Source: a virus (taxonomy: Duplodnaviria; Caudoviricetes). From it: 64,000 bases of DNA. A program made the position numbers and the translations under genes. Of this stretch, positions 2-11,445 are shown in pieces (positions within the stretch are counted from its first letter, which is position 1; each line of letters begins with the position of its first letter). The stretch is taken from positions 27,651 through 91,650 of the IMG/VR virus record IMGVR_UViG_3300033120_000804; one strand, 5' to 3'. The notes beneath the pieces were generated by a model, which saw only the letters and a list, made by a program, of their open reading frames with translations, did not search any database and had not been told where the DNA came from.

Positions 2-1933
2 TCTGTATTTGGAAACCCAGATAAAAAAGGGGAGTTTAATGAAGATGTAATCAAGAATATCGCTGAATATACCAATACTCCAATTGAAGAAGTTAAAACA
101 CTTTTAAAACCATATTTAAATATAAATCAAACTGATGCTCAAGCTTGGATAACATTAGATGTTTATAAAGAGAGAATGTTAGGTTTAGGTAAATGGACAG
201 AAGAACATGAAATTTCCTTTGATAAAATAAAAAAAGGAGAAACATTATCATTTAAAGATAAATCTATTTTAGCACAACCATTAAAAACTGTACATGTAGA
301 GTTAAAAAAGAATTCTCAGAATACAATGATAATGCATTATAATAAGCAGTCTGAAGCAGTATTACTTCCATTCTTAACCAAAGGTACAGAATTAGATAAC
401 CTTAGATTGGCTATGGAAAGCCAAAAAGTTGATCATATAATTGTACTAGATGGTAAAAAAGTAGGTGCTTCAGGTATTACTAATATTCTGGACGAACAAG
501 GAAAAATTAAACCTAGTTCTGATATTATATTTAATTCTACTAATTTATCTTATAGAGGTTTATTTCTACAACAAGATTTACCTCCTCACGGTATAGATAG
601 TAGACTAGTTGGTAGCCAAGCTGTTAAAAATGTAATGAGTGTTGTATCTAAAGATGAAATAGGTCTTAAATTAGTAGATCAATACCATTCAGTAATATCT
701 AAGTTATCTGATAGAGGTTTACTTAAAATTAAATCTGTATTAGGATATGATCCAGTATTAAAATTTACTGAAGATTCTAATGGAAAGTCAAGATTTTTTG
801 ATACTCTTCATAAAGAATTCTATAATGACTTATCAGATAACTATTTAATTGGTTTAAAAAAGAAATATCCTATTGATGCATTACCATTAAGAAATAAGAT
901 CCAGAATAAACTACATGCTCTTATTACTAAATCGGCTGTTAAACTACAGCAATTAGGAGGAGCATTAATTCAAATATCAGATTTAGGATTAATAGGCGTT
1001 GAAGTAGATATGAATACTCCAGTTAAAGATGGTATTATTTGGTTTAAAAATCCTACAGAAAAACTTAAAGCAATGAGTATTAATGAAAAAGGTGTTAAAC
1101 CTGCTCAAATATTAATGCCTTATGCTAAAATGATGCAAGATCCTAGAATTAATCTTATTATTAAAAATAAATTTGGAGTAAATTCATATAAAGAATTAAG
1201 TGCTAATCAAATTAAAGAATTAATTTCATCTAAAGTATTAGAAGGATTATCTTACCGTATTCCTAATCAAGGTCCTTCATCTAATGATGCTTTTGAAATA
1301 GTAGGTATATTACCCCCAGAAATGGGAGATAGTATTGTATCATTCTCTGATATTACTACTAAAACTGGATCTGATTTTGATATTGATAAAAGTTTTATTA
1401 TTCTACCTAATTATCATTTTGATGCAAAAGCTAATAAAATTAGATATGTAGAGTATGATCCTTTAAATGAAACCAAAGAAGGTTTAGAAAATAGACGTTT
1501 AGAGCTCATGAGAGAAATGCTAATGCGCCCTGAAGCATATTTATCAGTAATGGCTCCATTAGATGATCCTTGGTTAGAAAATGTAGCTAAAGATTTATTT
1601 CCTGAATCACTAAATAACAATGATTTACAATTTTTCAATGGAGTAGAACAGTTAAGTAATAAGATATTATTTGATAATGCTAAATCATTAGTAGGTACTA
1701 TTGCAAATCATATGAGTAACCATTCTTTATTTTTACATGAAGATATTGGATTCAATGATTATTACTTAGGAAAAGGAATTAAAACAGGTGCTGTAGAAAA
1801 AATTGAAAATAATGATGTATCTTTGTCAGAAGATAAATGGGAATTAATTGTAAGTAAAGATGATTCAATGACAAAAGATACTTGGGAAAGTTTATCCAAC
1901 AAAGAAAAAAATAAAATCTTAGAATGTTTATAA
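2..1933 (+). CDS. crAss-like virion RNA polymerase, catalytic (N-terminal) part; 5'-truncated by the window
   Basis: Frame is open from base 2 (…INQTDAQAWITLD…). Contains YRIPNQG and the catalytic GSDFDIDK motif typical of crAss-like virion RNAPs. Confidence 0.9.
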   Translation, partial: SVFGNPDKKGEFNEDVIKNIAEYTNTPIEEVKTLLKPYLNINQTDAQAWITLDVYKERMLGLGKWTEEHEISFDKIKKGETLSFKDKSILAQPLKTVHVELKKNSQNTMIMHYNKQSEAVLLPFLTKGTELDNLRLAMESQKVDHIIVLDGKKVGASGITNILDEQGKIKPSSDIIFNSTNLSYRGLFLQQDLPPHGIDSRLVGSQAVKNVMSVVSKDEIGLKLVDQYHSVISKLSDRGLLKIKSVLGYDPVLKFTEDSNGKSRFFDTLHKEFYNDLSDNYLIGLKKKYPIDALPLRNKIQNKLHALITKSAVKLQQLGGALIQISDLGLIGVEVDMNTPVKDGIIWFKNPTEKLKAMSINEKGVKPAQILMPYAKMMQDPRINLIIKNKFGVNSYKELSANQIKELISSKVLEGLSYRIPNQGPSSNDAFEIVGILPPEMGDSIVSFSDITTKTGSDFDIDKSFIILPNYHFDAKANKIRYVEYDPLNETKEGLENRRLELMREMLMRPEAYLSVMAPLDDPWLENVAKDLFPESLNNNDLQFFNGVEQLSNKILFDNAKSLVGTIANHMSNHSLFLHEDIGFNDYYLGKGIKTGAVEKIENNDVSLSEDKWELIVSKDDSMTKDTWESLSNKEKNKILECL

Positions 1934-1934
1934 T

Positions 1935-2288
1935 ATGAAAATACAAGAAATCTTAACAATGCTATTTGAAATTGAAATAGTAGCTCATGTAGCACATTTA
2001 CAAACTACATCTTATGCAAAACATATGGCTTTAGATCAATTATACAATGATATTGTAGAACACAGAGATACACTTGCAGAAGCTTGGCAAGGAGAATATG
2101 GTATAGTATCTGGATATGGTGATTTAAGTTTTAAAGAAGGGACTGATATTGTAAAATATTTAGGAGAGTGTTGTAAATCATTAGATACATTTAAAAAAGA
2201 AGTAGATGAGTCTTACATTCAACAAATACTAGATAATGTAAGTGAACTTTTGTATAAAGTTAAATACAAACTTGTAAATCTTAAATAA
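1935..2288 (+). CDS. Ferritin/Dps-like four-helix-bundle protein (DUF5856-like)
   Basis: AHVAHLQTTSYAKHMALDQLY…D.LAE.WQG.YG and terminal YKL..L pattern of phage ferritin-like proteins. Confidence 0.75.
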   Translation: MKIQEILTMLFEIEIVAHVAHLQTTSYAKHMALDQLYNDIVEHRDTLAEAWQGEYGIVSGYGDLSFKEGTDIVKYLGECCKSLDTFKKEVDESYIQQILDNVSELLYKVKYKLVNLK

Positions 2289-4273
2289 TGGCTTATTGTA
2301 TTGATATAAATCATTTTAAAGTAAAAGAATTAGCAGAACAACTAAATTTACCAAGAATAGTAACTGCTGCTAAAATAGCATTGTGGCAAGAAGAAAATAA
2401 TAATTTTGATCTATTTCCTGAAATAGAAGATTTATCTACTACTAAAGTTAAAGAAATTAATCAAAATAATACTTTACTATCTAATAGATTTGACGAGTCT
2501 GGAAATAAAATAGAAAATACATTAGGTGCTTTCATGAATGCTATTGTAGATGCTGCTAAAGATCCTTATATTTCTAGAGCTAATATTAATCAATTTACAG
2601 CTGGAACTGCTTTTATGTTAGCTAGAGCTGGAGTAGATAGAGAATGGATTGTATCATTTATTGGCCAACCCATACTTAAAGATTTATATTTAGAAACTCA
2701 AAAAGCAGAAAGTGAAGCATCTAGTGAAAAAAGAGATGATAAAGGAAAAAAATTAAAACCCTTAGATATAATAATTAAAAAATACAAAGGACAAGATTTT
2801 GTTAAGGAGCAATTAAAGAGTTATAAATTAAAAAAAGATAAATTAGGTAATATTATATTATCTACAGAAGAACTAATATCTTCTATTAAAGAACCTGATT
2901 TAGATAATTCAGACTTTGTTAATAGACAACTTGAAGTTTTAAATCAGTTTATTGAATGGCAAGGTAAATCAAGAGAATTAAATGATTTATTAAAATTAAC
3001 TAAGGTAGATGTAGATGGCGCATTTAGAAATTTAAATAGAGTAAATTTATATTTAAAACTATATAATAATGTAGTAGGTAATAATAAATTTATTGGTATT
3101 GATAATATTCTAGGAGTTAATCCAGAGTCTAAAAATATGATTGCCACCTATATTAAGAATGGGCCTAAAGCTGCTAGAGAAATGTATGGAAGTATGTTTT
3201 TAGAAGCAACTCCTGCATTTGATAACTTAACTGATCAAGTATTAAAATCAGCAGGTTACTTAGATCTAGGTATGACTAAGAAAAACGAAATGCTCTTAGA
3301 TTGGATTAGTAATGAAGTCTATGCTTATACAATTGCTAATACAGATTACTTTAATATAGAACAAGATCAATTAAAAGAAATCTTTTTTGGTTCTAAAAGC
3401 TCTCTTGATTTAGGGGAAGAAATAATTAAATATAGAAAAGATAATCCTAATATATTATTAGATTCTTTAAATATAGAAATATCAAGTAAGGATTTAACTA
3501 ATGGAGAATTTCTTAAAACACCTTGCAAAATAACTTTAGATAATAATGATCAAGTAAAACAATTACAAAATCAGTTTTATAAAGAATGGGAAAAATTATA
3601 TTATGATAATCCTACACTTGGTAAGAAATTAGTACAGTACGCATTTTACTCATCTGGATTCTATTCTAAGAATAGTTTACAAGATCATATTCCTTTGAAT
3701 ATCCTAAATTCAACAGGTTATTTTGATGATTTTACAGATAGTAGAAAATTCTATTCCAAAAATCAATTTGCTTTAGATGCTTCATTAGATACTATTTATA
3801 AAAATCTATATTATATCAATGAGTTAGTACCTAAAATTAACCTAGCTATTACAAGTGCAATAGCAGATGATAAAGGTAATGTATTTGATACAAATGATGG
3901 TTTTATATTAGCTGATTTAAATCCTAGTTATATTGCTGGATTAGATAGTAATAATTCAGTTGTATGGAAAAGATTTTTAAAGACTACTGATAACTTATAT
4001 CAATGGCAAGGTTATACTGAAGATGGATTGGGAGCTGTTTATTTAAAGGTAAATAAATTAGGTTTTAATAACTTAGGTAGATCACTTAAAGAATATAATG
4101 CAAATGACTCAATTATAACTGAAAATAATATAAGTTTACCAGAAGCTTTAATTAAAGTAGCAAGTGGATTAAGTTCTATAAAATACCCAGTAACTAAGTT
4201 TACTGAAAAAGATATTGAAAATGTAGTACAAAGTGATATTACAGAAAGATTAAATTATTGTAAAATAGTATAA
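2288..4273 (+). CDS. Virion RNA polymerase, C-terminal part (split gene)
   Basis: After a ~60 aa head it carries FMNAIVDAAKDPYI…N.N.FT…MLARAG, a motif I recognise as lying downstream of DFDID within the same polypeptide in crAss-like RNAPs. Confidence 0.75.
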   Translation: MAYCIDINHFKVKELAEQLNLPRIVTAAKIALWQEENNNFDLFPEIEDLSTTKVKEINQNNTLLSNRFDESGNKIENTLGAFMNAIVDAAKDPYISRANINQFTAGTAFMLARAGVDREWIVSFIGQPILKDLYLETQKAESEASSEKRDDKGKKLKPLDIIIKKYKGQDFVKEQLKSYKLKKDKLGNIILSTEELISSIKEPDLDNSDFVNRQLEVLNQFIEWQGKSRELNDLLKLTKVDVDGAFRNLNRVNLYLKLYNNVVGNNKFIGIDNILGVNPESKNMIATYIKNGPKAAREMYGSMFLEATPAFDNLTDQVLKSAGYLDLGMTKKNEMLLDWISNEVYAYTIANTDYFNIEQDQLKEIFFGSKSSLDLGEEIIKYRKDNPNILLDSLNIEISSKDLTNGEFLKTPCKITLDNNDQVKQLQNQFYKEWEKLYYDNPTLGKKLVQYAFYSSGFYSKNSLQDHIPLNILNSTGYFDDFTDSRKFYSKNQFALDASLDTIYKNLYYINELVPKINLAITSAIADDKGNVFDTNDGFILADLNPSYIAGLDSNNSVVWKRFLKTTDNLYQWQGYTEDGLGAVYLKVNKLGFNNLGRSLKEYNANDSIITENNISLPEALIKVASGLSSIKYPVTKFTEKDIENVVQSDITERLNYCKIV

Positions 4274-4275
4274 GA

Positions 4276-7200
4276 ATGTATATTTGTTTTGATGAAAATG
4301 ATGAAGGTTGGCAAAAATTAGTACAATCTTTTGGAGGTGATGAAAAAAAAGCATTTGCAGCTTGGGAAGCAAATAACTATAACTATTCTGATGATATATA
4401 TTCTAATATAGCTCAAGATGCAGTATTAGAAGAAGATGTAGCTGAAGAACCTAAAGATAAATATTATAAAGAGAAACAAATTGTTCTAGATAAAGCAGAA
4501 TCTATTCTAAAACATAAATTAAAGTCTTTAAAATATGCTGTAAATAAACATGAACATTTAGATACTTTGGTAACTCAAATGAATGGAGTACTTCAGGATC
4601 TAGAAAACTATGAAACTGACTTTGCAATCATTAAATTTATCCAGGGTTCAGAAAGAATGATTAACTCATCTTTAAAATGGCTGGAGAAAATTGAAAATGA
4701 CCCTTCTAAGCTCAATGCTAATACACTCAAAAGAATATACGAAAGTGTATCTCAATTTGAGATTTTAAACACTCTCTCAGAAGACTTTTTTGAAGATCCT
4801 GAGCATAAAGAAGAATATAGAAAAGTATCTGATTTATTAAGTAAGATTAATAATATTCATAATAGATATATTACTGAGGCTAGGGACTTCTTAGTAGACC
4901 ATATTACTCCTGGTTTTCAAAAAGTAAAAGCATTTTATGAAGAAAAAGCAGAAAGAGAGTATAATGAATCCAAGTTAAAAGTAGATAAAGCAAGAGGACT
5001 TAATAAAGAAGATCTTAGAAAAGCTAAGCAGGAATATATTTATAGATATTTAGCAGCTAATAAAACAACTATTGATAAAGAAACTAAAGAGTATGTAGAA
5101 AACATGGTTGTTCAAATTGCTGATATTAGCTCTTTAATTAGATTTATTGAGAACCCAAGAGACATTAATCATGATATTATTGGAGTTGCAACGGAAGCTT
5201 TAGATTTATCTAATAGAGATGTCAGACAAAAAACTATTAATAAAACATATGAAGGTGATAAATTAAACAAAGCTTTTATTGATTATATAGGTAAACAATC
5301 AGATCCTAAAAAACAATATGCAGAGTTATTTGCTACAGATGAAAAAGGAAATATATTACCTATATTAGTTAATGAAGATTCATTTAATTGGAAATCATTT
5401 ACAGAGAAGTATAAAGATACGCCAGTAATGGAATTACATACTTTTTTATATAATTTATCTAAAGAAAAAACAAAATTAACCGGAACATATAAATCATTAG
5501 GATTCAAATTACCATCTATTAATAAAAGTAATTTAGAAAGATTTTACTCAAATGGTAGTCTTGATACATTAAAACAAGGATTTTTAGATCATTTTAGAAT
5601 TACTGCACAAGATACTGATTATGGTCAAGTAGAAATAGATGAAGCTAATGATAAAAAATTAGATATTAAAAGTACTATTAAAGTTAAAGCTAATGCTCAG
5701 GGGTTAGAAAGATCTGAAATTCCTCTATATTATAGATATAAAATAGATGAAAAAGATTTAAGTTATGATATTGTAAGTTCATTCTTAATGGATTATAATA
5801 ATTCCTTGCAATTTAATGCTAGAACAGAGACAGGGTTATTTCTAGAAATGCTTAAAGATGTGGTAAATGAAGCTTCAGTAGAACAAAGAGTAACATTAAC
5901 TAAAAAACTAAAAATAGATAGTTTAACTGGTAAAACAGTAACTACTACAGCAGAAACATCTAACGTAGCTAAAGCACTAGAATCTTTAATTAGACATAGA
6001 ATTTATGGTATTTCAGTTGAAGGTGATCCTAAAACAGCTAAAATATTAAATCAAATAAAAAATGCTACTTCATTTATTACATTAGGAGGTAACGTATTAT
6101 CAGGAGCTGCCAATTATTTACAAGGAGAATCTGTAATGCTTATTGAAGCTATTGGAAACAAAGACTCAAAATTCTCTATTAAAGATAGAGCTAAGGCTAG
6201 TTTAAAGTTTGATAAAGATATTGGTAATATAATGAAAGATATAGGAGAAATAACTCCTACTAGTAAAACTAATAGATTAATTACTTACTTTGATGCATTA
6301 TCTGATTTTGAAGTAAATGAAAATAAATTTATTAAAAATAATAAGTTTAAAAAAGTAATGGATTCTGGAGCAATGATGTTTGCTAATCAATTTGCAGAAT
6401 ATACAGTTCAAACTGTATTAATGTATAGTAGATTAAATAATATCAAAGCTTTAAATAGCAGTGGTAAATATTTAACTAAAGAATTTACAGAAACAGCTAA
6501 TAGAGATGAAGCTATATCTATAGATGAAGCTATTGTAGGTTGGTCAGAAGAAAATAATCCTATATTTCATAAGTCTGTATCTAAAACAGATATTACTTCA
6601 GATTTAAGTGAAAAAAGTATGTTTAAAATAGAATCTGATATTAAAAGAATTAATAGAGATTTATATGGTAACTATGATTCTTTAAATAAAAGTGAATTAG
6701 AAAGAAATGCTTTTGGGGCCCTATTAACTCAAATGAGAAAATGGATTGTAACAGGTATTCAAAAAAGATATAGAGGTATTGGTAATGTAAAAACTAAAAC
6801 TGAAGATCTAGATATTAAACAAAGAAGTTTTAATACTCAAACAGATCAATTTGAAGAAGGTACTTATACTACATCAATAAAATTTCTATACAATTTAGTT
6901 AAAGAATGGAAAGCTTTAAGAATGAAAACAGTTCCTGAAAATTGGAATAAATTAACTAATAATGAAAAAGCTAATATTAAGATGACTATGGTTGAAATAG
7001 GTATGGCGATATCTTTATGGGCATTAGCTACTGCTTTAAGATCTGGAGATGATGATGATGAAGATAAACTATTATTAGCTTATTTATCTAGAAGATTATA
7101 TTCTGAATTAATATCATTTGCAAACATTAATGAAGCCCTTAGAACATTTAGAAGCCCTATGATGGTAACTAATACTATGGAATCTATAGTAGATGTCATT

Positions 7201-7350
7201 ACACAAGCTTCTACAGCTCCTACAGAAGAATATGAAACAGGTTTTAATAAAGGAGAAAATAAACTTAAACATAAATTAGTTAAATTGATTCCAGTTTGGA
7301 AACAATATGATAGAAACTTGGAACAATCTATGTTATTTTTAGAAAAATAA
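4276..7350 (+). CDS. Large virion cargo/ejection protein (1024 aa)
   Basis: Large helical protein directly after the RNAP, with the same Cys-containing N-terminal head. Position is typical of crAss-like cargo proteins. Confidence 0.6.
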   Translation: MYICFDENDEGWQKLVQSFGGDEKKAFAAWEANNYNYSDDIYSNIAQDAVLEEDVAEEPKDKYYKEKQIVLDKAESILKHKLKSLKYAVNKHEHLDTLVTQMNGVLQDLENYETDFAIIKFIQGSERMINSSLKWLEKIENDPSKLNANTLKRIYESVSQFEILNTLSEDFFEDPEHKEEYRKVSDLLSKINNIHNRYITEARDFLVDHITPGFQKVKAFYEEKAEREYNESKLKVDKARGLNKEDLRKAKQEYIYRYLAANKTTIDKETKEYVENMVVQIADISSLIRFIENPRDINHDIIGVATEALDLSNRDVRQKTINKTYEGDKLNKAFIDYIGKQSDPKKQYAELFATDEKGNILPILVNEDSFNWKSFTEKYKDTPVMELHTFLYNLSKEKTKLTGTYKSLGFKLPSINKSNLERFYSNGSLDTLKQGFLDHFRITAQDTDYGQVEIDEANDKKLDIKSTIKVKANAQGLERSEIPLYYRYKIDEKDLSYDIVSSFLMDYNNSLQFNARTETGLFLEMLKDVVNEASVEQRVTLTKKLKIDSLTGKTVTTTAETSNVAKALESLIRHRIYGISVEGDPKTAKILNQIKNATSFITLGGNVLSGAANYLQGESVMLIEAIGNKDSKFSIKDRAKASLKFDKDIGNIMKDIGEITPTSKTNRLITYFDALSDFEVNENKFIKNNKFKKVMDSGAMMFANQFAEYTVQTVLMYSRLNNIKALNSSGKYLTKEFTETANRDEAISIDEAIVGWSEENNPIFHKSVSKTDITSDLSEKSMFKIESDIKRINRDLYGNYDSLNKSELERNAFGALLTQMRKWIVTGIQKRYRGIGNVKTKTEDLDIKQRSFNTQTDQFEEGTYTTSIKFLYNLVKEWKALRMKTVPENWNKLTNNEKANIKMTMVEIGMAISLWALATALRSGDDDDEDKLLLAYLSRRLYSELISFANINEALRTFRSPMMVTNTMESIVDVITQASTAPTEEYETGFNKGENKLKHKLVKLIPVWKQYDRNLEQSMLFLEK

Positions 7351-7413: not shown

Positions 7414-7836
7414 CTAAATTTCTGGTATTGTTTCTTTAGATTTATAAAATTGATATAAAGTCTTCATATCTTCATAACTACCTTTATACCCTTTCTTATT
7501 TTCAAGTCTAGAAATAGTAGAAGCTGAGATATTAGTTAAATCTTCTACATCTTTTTGACTTAATTCCAACTTCTCTCTAGTTTCTCTAAAATACAATAGT
7601 AATAAATCATATTCTGGCATTATTACAATTTCATTAGTATTAACTACAATAGGTTTTTCTTCTTTCAACATATGAGCTAATTCTAGTTCATAATATTGAG
7701 AATCTTTACTTGTAGATAATCTTTCTAAAGATAAAATTTCATTTTTATAATTTAAGATTCTAATTCTATAATAGAAATAAAATATTACTGCTACTATAAT
7801 AGCAGTACTTAAAATGGATGTTATAACTTCTATCAT
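7414..7836 (-). CDS. Membrane-anchored XRE-family HTH protein
   Basis: N-terminal hydrophobic helix. C-terminal REKLELSQKDVEDLTNISASTISRLEN is an XRE-type HTH. Confidence 0.7.
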   Translation of the reverse strand: MIEVITSILSTAIIVAVIFYFYYRIRILNYKNEILSLERLSTSKDSQYYELELAHMLKEEKPIVVNTNEIVIMPEYDLLLLYFRETREKLELSQKDVEDLTNISASTISRLENKKGYKGSYEDMKTLYQFYKSKETIPEI

Positions 7837-8067: not shown

Positions 8068-11000
8068 TTAAGCACCACACATCTCACAATCATCCGGATT
8101 ATCTAAACTACAACTTATTTGTTCTTGTATTTCTTCTTTCTCAGCAGTAAATTTAATAGCATCAGCAGCAGCTTTTGTTCTTAAATAATACATACCTGTT
8201 TTTAAACCTAATTTCCAACCATAAAAATGCATGGAAGTAAGTTTACCAAAATTAGCATTCTCCATAAATACATTCATAGATTGAGATTGACAAATAAATT
8301 TACCTCTATCTGCTGCCATCTCTAATATTTTCTTTTGAGAGATTTCCCAAACAGTTTTAAATACTTCTTTTACTTCTGTTGGAATCTCTGGAATATTTTG
8401 TACAGAGCCATTTTCATTTTTAAGCTTATTAATAATAGTATCATTCCATAAATCTAAACTTATTAATTTATCTACTAAATGTTTGTTAACCATTATAAAT
8501 TCACCTGATAAAACTCTTCTAGTATATAAATTAGAAGTATATGGCTCAAAACATTCATTATTACCTAAAATAGAAGCTGTTGATGCAGTTGGCATTGGAG
8601 CTAATAATAATGAATTTCTAATTCCATATTTAACAATCTGAACTTTTAATTTTTTCCAATTCCAATTGCTAGATTTCTCTACTTCTTCTGTTTTATTCCA
8701 CATATCATACTGTAAAATACCTTTAGAAGCAGGAGATCCTTCAAATGAATCATAAGGCCCCTTTTCAATTGCAAGATCCTTAGAAGCTGTTAAACTAGCA
8801 AAATAAATAGTTTCAAATATTTTATCATTTAGTTCTTTAGCTTCCTCTGAATCAAAAGCAATATTCATCATTGCAAATGTATCTGCTAATCCCTGAATCC
8901 CAATACCAATTGGTCTATGCTTAAGATTGCTTAATTTAGTTTCAGGAGTAGGGTAATGATTACTATCAATAACTCTATTTAAGTTAATAGTTAATTCATA
9001 AGATAAGTCATATAATAAATCATGATCAAAGAAATAACCTAAAAATTCTGATTTACTATTTGCTGCTAATTTGCCTCCATATCCTTTTACTAGACATTTA
9101 TTAACTGCAATAGAAGCTAGATTACAAACTGCTTGTTCTGTTGGAGAAGTATATTCTAAAATCTCAGTACAATTTCCGGTTAAAATGCCATTAAAAACAG
9201 CTTTGTGTTTTAAAGGTTCATTTACACAATAGGTGTCAGAAATAATAGTATTTCTTTCTATATCTATAACTTTTATATAATTTTCAGATTGTCTATTGCT
9301 AGATAAAGTTCTTGATAAATTAAGCCTTTTACAATCTAAACCTAAATCAAGTAATTTTGAAGTTTCAATTCCTCCTAAATATAATCTATATGCAGATTTA
9401 CACCATCTTTCACAAGATTCTCCATTTCTATTTTTAAAAGTTCTAAATGTCTCATCAGATTTAAGAGTTAATTTGCAATTAACCCCCATAGTATCTAACA
9501 TTTTTTTAACATTTTCTAGAAATTCTTTATTAACAGCAGTTATTTCTATATCTTTACCATTAGAATGACCATCTCCGTCACAATAACCAGCAAACCAGTC
9601 AAGTTTAACATTTAATGAATAATCAAGAGGTACTTTATATTTATTTTCCATTTCTGGGTATAAAGTAAGATTTAAAGACCCTTCTGTTGTTAATTTTCCA
9701 GAAGTAGTTTTAAGGTTAATATACCCCTTTTTATACAAGTCAATTTTTGATCCATATAGAGTTATTCTCTTATGTTTTCCAAAATCATGGCCATCTGCAC
9801 AATATAAACCATGTGTATAAGGATATAAAAAATCATTATTAGAATTATCAATAGCTGGCATTGAAAATCTACTAATTCTATCTCCTACTATTAAATCTTC
9901 AGCATTAACAATTTCTTCATATAATTTTCCTTTGTTATTTTTACCTGGACGTTTAACATAAAACTTATGATAAGGAGTACAATCTAAAATGCTACCATTT
10001 GAAAAACTAAAAGTATGTAAATTTACATTTTCCCCTGTTTTTCTTACAATAGTATCTGAAAATTGGGTACCATTCCATACTTTAACATTTTGATTTTCTA
10101 AAGATGAAATAATTTTATAACCTTCATCTGTTAATATTTCAGTATGAGCAGCCACACATAAATTTGAAGATTTTATTGTCCCTAGATTTTTCTGATTAGA
10201 TTTTTTATTCGCTGCGTCCTTGTAGACAACAAACGGCGTACCTGTTTCAATTTGGGAATCTAAAATCTTAGTCCAAAGTTCTTGAGCTTTAATAGTCTTC
10301 CTACCTTTGTTCTCAGCTTCATATCTCTCATATAAGAGCTTAAATTCATCTCCATATACATCAGATAGTCCTGGACATTCATTAGGACACATAAGAGTCC
10401 AGTTTTCATCAGCTTCTACCCTCTGCATAAATAAATCTGGTATCCATAATGCTGGAAATAATTCTCTAGCTCTTAATTCCTCCTTGCCAGTATTCTTTCT
10501 GATATCTAAAAAATCAAATACATCAGCGTGCCAAGGTTCTAAATACATTGCAAAAGAACCCTTGCGCTTATTTCCTCCTTGGTCCCACCATCTAGCTAGT
10601 TCATTGTATGTTTTTAATAAAGGAATTAGTCCTTTAGAAGTACCACCAGAACCTTTAATGTATGATCCAGTAGCTCTAATGTTATGAATAGCTAAACCAA
10701 TGCCACCTGAGGCAGCTGAGATAGTAGCTACATCTTTTGCAGTATCCATAATACCTTCTAAACTATCTTCTTTATTTGTCAATAAGAAACAAGAAGACAT
10801 TTGAGGTTTCGGTGTACCTGAATTAAACAAAGTAGGAGTTGCATGTGTGTAATAACCATTAGCTAAACTAAGATAAGTTTTTTCTATATTAACTATATCT
10901 AACCCATGAATGCCAATAGCAACTCTCATATACATATATTGAGGAGTCTCTACAATATTTCCATTAGATCTAATTAAATAAGACTTATATAATGTTTTTA

Positions 11001-11445
11001 AACCAAAATAGTTTCTTTCATAATCTAATTGAGGAGTTATAAGTCTCTCAATAAAATCTTTATTTATATTAAAATCAGCAATTAATTTATCAGAAACTAA
11101 TGGAGCATCTTCCCCTGTTTTAGCATCTTTATTATTATAAAGAATATCAACACATTCTCCAAAAGTTTTAGGAGTATTTTTATGAAGATTAGCAACAAGT
11201 ATTCTAGAAGCTAAATATGAGTATTCATAATGCTTAGTAGATAGCATTGCAGCATTCTCTGCTAATAATTCATTAATTTGTACAGTAGTTACTCCATCAT
11301 ATAACCCAGAGATAGTTTTCTGGGTTACAATACTAGGATCTACAAAAGTTAATTTAGGTTCTAAATTAGCTAAATGTTTTACATGTTCAGTTAACTTATG
11401 CCAATTAGCATCAACTAAATGTCCACTTCTTTTTTTAATTTTCAT
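8068..11445 (-). CDS. nrdA: Class I ribonucleotide reductase alpha subunit containing an intein
   Basis: ATP cone, TPTLFN, SSCFL, SNL|CTEI catalytic site, APMPTAS, KTGMYY, C-terminal CEMC. Confidence 0.97.
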   Translation of the reverse strand: MKIKKRSGHLVDANWHKLTEHVKHLANLEPKLTFVDPSIVTQKTISGLYDGVTTVQINELLAENAAMLSTKHYEYSYLASRILVANLHKNTPKTFGECVDILYNNKDAKTGEDAPLVSDKLIADFNINKDFIERLITPQLDYERNYFGLKTLYKSYLIRSNGNIVETPQYMYMRVAIGIHGLDIVNIEKTYLSLANGYYTHATPTLFNSGTPKPQMSSCFLLTNKEDSLEGIMDTAKDVATISAASGGIGLAIHNIRATGSYIKGSGGTSKGLIPLLKTYNELARWWDQGGNKRKGSFAMYLEPWHADVFDFLDIRKNTGKEELRARELFPALWIPDLFMQRVEADENWTLMCPNECPGLSDVYGDEFKLLYERYEAENKGRKTIKAQELWTKILDSQIETGTPFVVYKDAANKKSNQKNLGTIKSSNLCVAAHTEILTDEGYKIISSLENQNVKVWNGTQFSDTIVRKTGENVNLHTFSFSNGSILDCTPYHKFYVKRPGKNNKGKLYEEIVNAEDLIVGDRISRFSMPAIDNSNNDFLYPYTHGLYCADGHDFGKHKRITLYGSKIDLYKKGYINLKTTSGKLTTEGSLNLTLYPEMENKYKVPLDYSLNVKLDWFAGYCDGDGHSNGKDIEITAVNKEFLENVKKMLDTMGVNCKLTLKSDETFRTFKNRNGESCERWCKSAYRLYLGGIETSKLLDLGLDCKRLNLSRTLSSNRQSENYIKVIDIERNTIISDTYCVNEPLKHKAVFNGILTGNCTEILEYTSPTEQAVCNLASIAVNKCLVKGYGGKLAANSKSEFLGYFFDHDLLYDLSYELTINLNRVIDSNHYPTPETKLSNLKHRPIGIGIQGLADTFAMMNIAFDSEEAKELNDKIFETIYFASLTASKDLAIEKGPYDSFEGSPASKGILQYDMWNKTEEVEKSSNWNWKKLKVQIVKYGIRNSLLLAPMPTASTASILGNNECFEPYTSNLYTRRVLSGEFIMVNKHLVDKLISLDLWNDTIINKLKNENGSVQNIPEIPTEVKEVFKTVWEISQKKILEMAADRGKFICQSQSMNVFMENANFGKLTSMHFYGWKLGLKTGMYYLRTKAAADAIKFTAEKEEIQEQISCSLDNPDDCEMCGA
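9172..10158 (-). mobile_element. Intein (329 aa) with LAGLIDADG endonuclease in NrdA
   Basis: Starts CVAAHTEIL right after SSNL and ends HKAVFNGILTGN before CTEI. Internal motifs GLYCADG, FAGYCDGDG and TPYHKF. Confidence 0.93.

Follow-up and report, generated by a model that had tools for sequence, protein, structure and literature searches.

Cysteine-bearing tail and head segments flank a Dps-like gene in the split RNA polymerase of a crAss-like phage and recur as terminal cysteine pairs among crassvirus cargo proteins

The beginning of the analyzed 64,000-nucleotide (nt) window, representing the final 64 kb of the 91,650-bp virus record IMGVR_UViG_3300033120_000804 (completeness 96%), covers a section of the module encoding the ejected (cargo) proteins in a crAss-like phage. 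In this module, the gene encoding the giant RNA polymerase (RNAP) was found to be interrupted by a cassette composed of a cysteine-bearing tail, a Dps-like mini-ferritin gene, and a cysteine-bearing head. All coordinates refer to window numbering and to the + strand unless stated otherwise. The N-terminal RNAP piece, the 3' part of which lies at 2..1933 (phmmer against PDB 6VR4, E-value 5e-74), ends with the tail module, i.e., its last 48 residues (1787..1930). It is followed by the passenger gene of 117 amino acids (aa; 1935..2288) and by the C-terminal RNAP piece of 661 aa (2288..4273, E-value 7e-28), whose first 60 residues represent the head module (2288..2467). Near-terminal cysteines of the same kind were detected in pairs at 104 of about 108 junctions between consecutive proteins of this module in 78 related loci. 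We consider it probable, although short of certain, that docking and a disulfide bond chain these separately translated ejected proteins end to end, and that such a clasp joins the two halves of the RNAP.

Assignment of the interrupted gene to the gp66 family, named after gp66 of phage phi14:2 (PDB 6VR4), is based on the catalytic DFDxD motif, present as GSDFDIDK near position 1373 in the N piece, on the collinearity of the giant protein with gp66, and on its position between a gp67-like and a gp65-like gene. Residues 29-593 of the open reading frame (ORF) encoding the 3' part of the N piece (ORF1) were aligned to residues 960-1590 of gp66, and residues 60-604 of the C piece (ORF3) to residues 1594-2114 (phmmer). 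Since adjoining gp66 ranges are distributed over two ORFs, the RNAP is split collinearly. Approximately 50 residues at the end of the N piece and 59 residues at the start of the C piece have no gp66 counterpart. The initial annotation, made from the sequence alone, had described a DFDID-containing ORF ending at 1933, a ferritin-like gene following it, and RNAP sequence returning only after a head of about 60 aa. This description proved to be accurate, as the stop codon is located at 1931-1933, the next gene belongs to family DUF5856, and gp66 homology starts again only at residue 60 of ORF3. The split site after gp66 residue 1590 is new; in phi14:2 and crAss001, the RNAP represents one chain.

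A search with the end of the N piece revealed an unsplit relative of 2078 aa (P0010), which is 89% identical to residues 1-1488 of the N piece and 87% identical to residues 61-661 of the C piece. Where the window features the tail (48 residues), the Dps-like gene, and the head (60 residues), at approximately 1787-2467, P0010 has four residues. It keeps the N-terminal, C-terminal, and interior cysteines of the window proteins and lacks exactly the two junction cysteines. The same split site, tail ending, and head were identified in P0011, P0012 with P0002, P0014 with P0003, P0005, and P0001. Every split homolog keeps both junction cysteines. In P0013 and P0004, the gene is uninterrupted at this position, and neither tail nor head is present. 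Between near-identical phages, both cysteines come and go together with the split, and no comparative evidence shows more cleanly that the two ends function as a pair. As the initial annotation had proposed, the tail and head are added segments rather than ordinary internal RNAP sequence, being missing from gp66, P0010, P0013, and P0004, and the 681-nt cassette splits an essential gene, with a passenger in the break, by means of neither an intein nor an intron. When viral and metagenome contigs were scanned for the head of the window type, it was detected at no additional locus. In P0001 (818 aa), a relative of the RNAP C piece, about 170 extra residues (approximately 60-230) without a Pfam match are located between the head and the RNAP body.

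A maximum-likelihood tree calculated from 300 residues around DFDID placed three split forms each next to an unsplit sister with strong support, one of these pairs being nested among six unsplit forms. On this tree, the split state needs four changes, and the approximately unbiased (AU) test rejected a single clade of split forms (difference in log-likelihood 296, p 7e-5). The sister pairs and the rejected clade therefore show that close relatives gain or lose the cassette as a whole at a single site, and that the split state is polyphyletic. Patchy presence at one site among close relatives, as expected for insertions of the homing-endonuclease type, was thus found for the cassette, which may reflect repeated transfer or repeated precise loss. 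Stronger conservation of the cassette than of its host gene was considered as proof of transfer and did not turn out to be clear-cut: between split lineages, the tail shows 46-54% identity and lies below the adjacent N body with 54-63%, only the C body being lower, and the cassette is about as similar between lineages as the adjacent RNAP core. The argument for mobility therefore rests on the tree. Neither target-site duplications nor terminal repeats were found at the cassette ends. Furthermore, a DUF5856 protein with 64% identity to the passenger originated from a contig (33646 bp) matching the P0014/P0003 pair in source and size, which suggests, without proving it, that the passenger travels with the cassette and that a Dps-like gene is located in the break of this lineage as well.

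The tail module is predicted to be helical, is rich in acidic residues and lysine, and ends at its cysteine (codon 1925-1927), the penultimate residue of the N piece. In the AlphaFold model of the head (alignment A5; predicted local distance difference test (pLDDT) 77.8), Cys4 (codon 2297-2299) is carried by an extended arm, after which the chain folds into a hairpin of two helices (residues 10-19 and 23-37) and continues as a disordered linker, and P0010 aligns to the C piece only from residue 61. No Pfam family matched the head, and its SAP/HeH-like appearance is an impression only. A profile of this type of head (class A) retrieved 724 protein clusters among 1.84 billion representatives. 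The best 150 of these 724 matches all begin at residue 1-4, and the head cysteine is located at residue 3-6 in all 149 sequences fetched of the best 150, 36 of the 49 long ones having no other cysteine. Each side of a junction features one invariant cysteine and no further invariant ligand. Class A heads pair with one tail motif (Fisher p 5e-5, obtained with crude patterns and uncorrected for shared descent), and the class A head appeared at different junctions in different phages.

Docking of the tail on the head was evaluated by complex prediction. The tail and head reached an ipSAE (interaction prediction score from aligned errors) of 0.40 versus 0.02 for the best of three controls, the runs agreeing in at least 95% of contacts with a partner pLDDT of at least 68. 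The ipSAE mark applied was reached by 58 of 80 solved complexes and by 2 of 110 mismatched pairs; at values of ≤0.60, it was reached by only 7 of the 80 solved complexes together with both passing mismatches. The prediction lends weak support to docking of the tail on the head.

Insertion of a cassette into an essential phage gene at a conserved site, with a product still working as two polypeptides and patchy occurrence in relatives, resembles genes in pieces and split inteins. In the T4-like phage Aeh1, for example, nrdA is reportedly split by mobE, a free-standing homing endonuclease gene. In contrast to such systems, the window cassette brings its own docking ends and features neither an endonuclease domain, the sole Pfam match in the break being DUF5856, nor intein motifs or splicing. 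It is extremely improbable that tail and head constitute a split intein or some other ligation system rejoining the RNAP, although cysteines at the break and an apparent intein in the ribonucleotide reductase of the same genome point in that direction. The tail cysteine is located 0-6 residues from the stop, leaving no room for an N-intein after it, the residue preceding the head cysteine varies instead of being a conserved Asn, and the modules together comprise approximately 108 residues and are predicted to be helical rather than to adopt the HINT (Hedgehog/intein) beta fold of about 130 residues. No intein family of Pfam was matched. On the basis of the cysteine position, the variable residue before the head cysteine, the helical head, and the missing Pfam match, this candidate was rejected; peptide ligation, listed by the initial annotation among the conceivable linking chemistries, accordingly finds no support.

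The cassette could also be regarded as the neutral remnant of a selfish insertion, the RNAP halves reassembling via their own large interface and the tail and head being leftovers. Several lineages naturally possess split large RNAP subunits with no special modules, homing endonuclease genes reside in junctions of the surveyed loci L084 and perhaps L078 (see below), and the cassette is polyphyletic, all of which fits such an origin. A mere leftover would, however, hardly be kept at 46-72% identity in tail and head between split lineages with both cysteines invariant, nor would it belong to a head family of 724 clusters whose best matches are N-terminal and cysteine-bearing, and we regard this explanation as very unlikely.

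To determine how common terminal cysteines are, 96 related loci were collected from IMG/VR together with cultured and reference crassviruses; in 78 loci, the DFDID protein was part of a chain of large ORFs. A junction was counted as paired when the upstream protein had a cysteine within its last seven residues and the downstream protein had one at residue 2-8. Such a pair was present at 104 of the 118 unique junctions listed, most of the other 14 being boundaries outside the gp67/gp66/gp65-like module. True exceptions are L053, L074 (cysteine at -18, negative positions being counted from the C-terminus), and the frameshifted contig L041. By chance, cysteines in both seven-residue end windows are expected at approximately 0.8% of junctions, given a background cysteine content of 1.36%. 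The interior of the 202 chain proteins contains 0.013% cysteine compared to 1.36% in the other ORFs of the window genome, corresponding to an approximately 100-fold depletion. The chain lengths range from two to at least four links across phages.

The outer ends of the chains follow a different pattern, since 37 of 44 first proteins have no cysteine at the N-terminus and 60 of 62 last proteins have none at the C-terminus. Fused polyproteins of 3500-4720 aa feature a single, C-terminal cysteine, and no internal copy of the head was detected in them by means of the head hidden Markov model (HMM). Additional pairs accompany further splits. In L031 (49-14818), a 3247-aa fusion is followed by a 1674-aa C part of the RNAP, the split being located at approximately gp66 residue 1275 and having its own cysteine pair, with about 60 residues added as tail and 48 as head. 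In L054 (13240-16743 and downstream), the last protein occurs in two pieces, likewise with a cysteine pair of its own. The initial annotation had asked whether head and tail co-occur at consecutive cargo junctions and whether the terminal cysteines are conserved, and had inferred that the modules are portable. The survey bears out the co-occurrence; cysteines are conserved in all split homologs and across the order; and portability is shown by pairs at two independent RNAP split sites and at the split of the last protein, by the class A head at varied junctions, and by a cassette that comes and goes between sister lineages.

The same arrangement was found in cultured phages. In crAss001, gp47 (2341 aa) has its sole cysteine at -3 and gp49 (1349 aa) at residue 5, and terminal pairs are also present in cr4_1 (L020), cr8_1 (L111), and cr6_1 (L112). 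The proteins g067-g066-g065 of phi14:2 and gp47, gp50, and gp49 of crAss001 are homologous to those of the window, with the same order of functions and the same terminal cysteine rule; they differ in that their RNAP is one chain, whereas the window RNAP is cut, with a tail, head, and Dps-like gene added. Packaging of the RNAP cargo in the virion and its ejection are known for phi14:2 and crAss001, and fused polyprotein forms of crassvirus cargo have been described (bioRxiv 10.1101/2020.03.07.982082). Terminal cysteines are not described in the crassvirus accounts compared, which cover cargo, fused polyproteins, and tail disulfides. Many in-frame TAG stops were observed in cr6_1 and cr4_1, which points to recoding.

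Since gp47 of crAss001 is encoded on the strand opposite gp50, the rule acts on proteins and not through translational coupling. A nucleotide-level coupling signal was rejected for this reason, and it is further ruled out by passenger genes of 0.35-1.2 kb that can separate tail and head and by the use of both cysteine codons across junctions. Another possibility is that the terminal cysteines act independently of each other, either bonding to the portal or tail or serving as a packaging or processing signal of each protein, with no chaining involved. Disulfides do stabilise the tail barrel of crAss001, and a strictly N-terminal head might be a capsid-targeting signal. A per-protein signal would, however, be needed on the first protein too, and the first protein has no head cysteine, just as the last has no tail cysteine. 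Moreover, the two cysteines are jointly absent from the fused forms and from P0010 and jointly present at new splits, which makes independent functions quite unlikely.

A structural precedent for a disulfide in these junctions is provided by the cyanophage A4 (Anabaena phage A-4L), whose giant ejection proteins gp27 and gp26 are encoded by adjacent genes. In the cryo-electron microscopy structure, the long C-terminal helix of gp27 is inserted into gp26, and Cys1715 and Cys5 form a disulfide (PNAS 2025, PMC12002296). According to the A-4L genome, gp27 (1717 aa) and gp26 (1114 aa) each possess only that one cysteine, located three residues from the end and at residue 5, respectively, i.e., the same single-cysteine signature. 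Near-terminal cysteine pairs in cysteine-poor giant proteins were found in the window proteins and throughout the survey; the disulfide itself has been seen in A4 only. A4 also differs in having one pair, a pentameric pre-ejectosome, and a T7-like podophage background with neither an RNAP nor a split gene, and the A4 paper presents no general rule, multi-link chain, or portable module.

From these observations, we infer docking, a disulfide, and a role in packaging and ejection as follows. The upstream protein of a junction presents a short helical tail with a cysteine 1-7 residues from its C-terminus, and the downstream protein a cysteine at residue 2-8 on an extended arm in front of a small helical hairpin. 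Docking would bring the tail of one protein onto the head of its successor and let their cysteines form the disulfide. Because the link lies so close to both termini, the joined proteins would represent one almost linear thread, similar to the fused polyprotein of other crassviruses. Such a thread could enter the virion at a set stoichiometry and leave through the narrow tail, after which the reducing host cytoplasm would open the links again. The near absence of other cysteines would prevent wrong links. In the window, the 681-nt cassette (tail, stop, Dps-like gene, start, and head) sits in a variable loop of the RNAP, and the clasp would replace the lost peptide bond. Chaining of this kind would explain why the cysteines keep to strict positions, why others have been purged, and why split and fused genes are equivalent.

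Alternatively, tail and head may form a non-covalent helical clasp for assembly, with the cysteines binding a shared metal ion or serving otherwise and no disulfide being formed. The predicted docking, weakly passing its controls, the head as a defined helical hairpin, the helical tail, and the reducing cytoplasm in which assembly takes place are all compatible with such a clasp. A single invariant cysteine per side without any further invariant ligand, however, falls short of a usual zinc site, which speaks against a metal bridge. The same sequence signature corresponds to a disulfide in the A4 structure, and the strong purge of interior cysteines would be expected if stray disulfides were a danger. 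We consider the non-covalent clasp unlikely.

Several points weigh against disulfide chaining. Bond and docking are known experimentally from the cyanophage A4 rather than from a crassvirus, and virions assemble in a reducing cytoplasm, so that the bond would need to form late or after lysis. The complex prediction passes weakly and used custom alignments. With two class A pairs in the genome, the phage would have to avoid wrong pairing and closure of the N piece on itself. The last cysteine of crAss001 gp50 is located at -10, and the gut crassviruses cr8_1, cr6_1, and cr4_1 possess 7-15 interior cysteines in these proteins, unlike the IMG/VR loci. Furthermore, the junctions are related by descent, and their counts do not represent independent events. 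Regarding the tree, the group examined in the AU test was set by split state, yet the test was run after the first tree had been seen.

How podophages move sets of giant proteins of megadalton size through a narrow tail, and in which proportion and order they do so, is an open question in crassviruses as well as in N4- and T7-like phages; if disulfide chaining is true, tying proteins end to end would offer a direct and testable answer. The interchangeability of fused and unfused gene arrangements would likewise be accounted for. As a tool for joining proteins, the clasp, comprising approximately 50 + 60 residues (less in other classes), modular, and seemingly redox-reversible, could be useful.

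The passenger gene encodes a protein matching DUF5856 (E-value 8e-21; 75.3 bits versus a curated Pfam cut-off of 34.6) and, furthermore, a PHROG annotated as starvation-inducible regulator. Its AlphaFold model is a four-helix bundle (pLDDT 93.9), for which the top PDB matches in Foldseek were all Dps proteins with template-modelling (TM) scores of 0.78-0.82, though with E-values of only 4e-3 and above; a sequence comparison of DUF5856 with solved Dps structures gave no significant match. Residues H21, H30, D45, and E49 are invariant and are candidate metal ligands, their spacing resembling that of a Dps ferroxidase site. The predicted fold and the invariant His, His, Asp, and Glu resemble Dps mini-ferritins; the window protein differs in being shorter, phage-encoded, and located inside a cargo junction. 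It features ordinary internal cysteine and none at its termini.

Every ORF of ≥70 aa from the genome and from 83 loci, covering approximately 20 kb around each RNAP, was searched with HMMs of both ferritin-like families. All ten ferritin-like genes identified were located inside cysteine-tail/cysteine-head junctions of three kinds, and none was found outside such junctions in this data set. Ferritins of family PF00210 occupy junction gaps of more than 300 nt in L057, L074, L077, L078, L087, L096, and L097, and DUF5856 genes occupy such gaps in L064/L065 (15252-15617) and in the window (1935-2288). The ferritin-like proteins of the junctions have ordinary internal cysteines but no terminal one and are therefore not chain links. 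Junctions seem to collect mobile or accessory genes, as a GIY-YIG homing endonuclease gene was found in a cargo junction of L084 (12874-13635) and a 243-aa ORF without a Pfam match beside the ferritin of L078 (8825-9556). The initial annotation had stated that the RNAP is split by a ferritin-like gene. A passenger does reside in the break, as claimed; the splitting unit, however, is the tail, gene, and head together, and some ferritin-like genes occupy ordinary junctions that split no gene. No published report on ferritin-like genes in these junctions was found.

As to the reason for this placement, the junctions may be the sole harmless insertion points in a long late operon, or iron or oxidant chemistry may serve the clasp. 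It is conceivable, if doubtful, that tail, Dps-like gene, and head represent a new mobile gene-splitting cassette able to enter a loop of an essential virion enzyme thanks to its own cysteine clasp, which would rejoin both products once translated, with no intron, intein, or endonuclease taking part, and in which the passenger supplies or controls the oxidant or iron chemistry closing or protecting that clasp. Such a role of the passenger would explain why both ferritin families were found only inside these junctions, and their exclusive location offers a lead tying iron or oxidant chemistry to virion assembly. The ferritin association is new, as are the site of the RNAP split and the contrast with an 87-89% identical relative together with the polyphyly of the split state.

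In L064 (6128-15268), the RNAP protein comprises 3046 aa; its gp66-like part is extended by an unassigned stretch of approximately 990 residues, after which come a tail of class A, a DUF5856 gene, and a head of the same class. In addition, P0027, P0038, P0042, P0044, and P0066 are RNAP proteins starting just upstream of DFDID, for which precomputed and unchecked Pfam matches to PF13604, PF13538, and PF05970 (helicase-type P-loop) are available.

With respect to the gene layout, the module of the window genome follows the order gp67-like protein, RNAP N piece, RNAP C piece, and gp65-like protein, as deduced from the whole-genome gene order and from blastp comparisons of the flanks to gp67 and gp65. 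The complete N-piece gene encodes 1536 aa and starts 2678 bases 5' of the window, as read from the whole genome. The start of the C piece overlaps the end of the passenger gene in a TAATG sequence, and its own tail cysteine (4259-4261), located four residues from the end, is invariant in alignment A1. The gp65-like protein of 1024 aa (4276..7350; blastp to phi14:2 gp65, E-value 1e-81) is the last link of the chain; its head (approximately 4276-4407), which is matched by the head HMM, carries the sole cysteine at residue 4, and its C-terminus has none. In total, three cysteines were counted in ORF1, three in ORF3, and one in the gp65-like protein (ORF4). All sequence details quoted by the initial annotation, namely Cys4 in both heads, a cysteine 2-4 residues from the end of both tails, and cysteine-poor proteins, were correct, as was the recurrence of the pairing at the next junction. 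A third cysteine-tail/cysteine-head pair is located just 5' of the window, where a 1748-aa protein has its single cysteine at -2 and the RNAP N piece has one at residue 4, the stop of the former gene overlapping the start of the latter.

Directly after the cargo block, at the strand switch, the - strand encodes a protein of 140 aa (7414-7836) whose N-terminus is hydrophobic and which contains an HTH_3 domain. The large subunit of ribonucleotide reductase (1125 aa; 8068-11445, - strand) features an insertion of approximately 350 residues bearing a LAGLIDADG domain. This insertion looks like a true intein, residing in the same genome that splits its RNAP without one.

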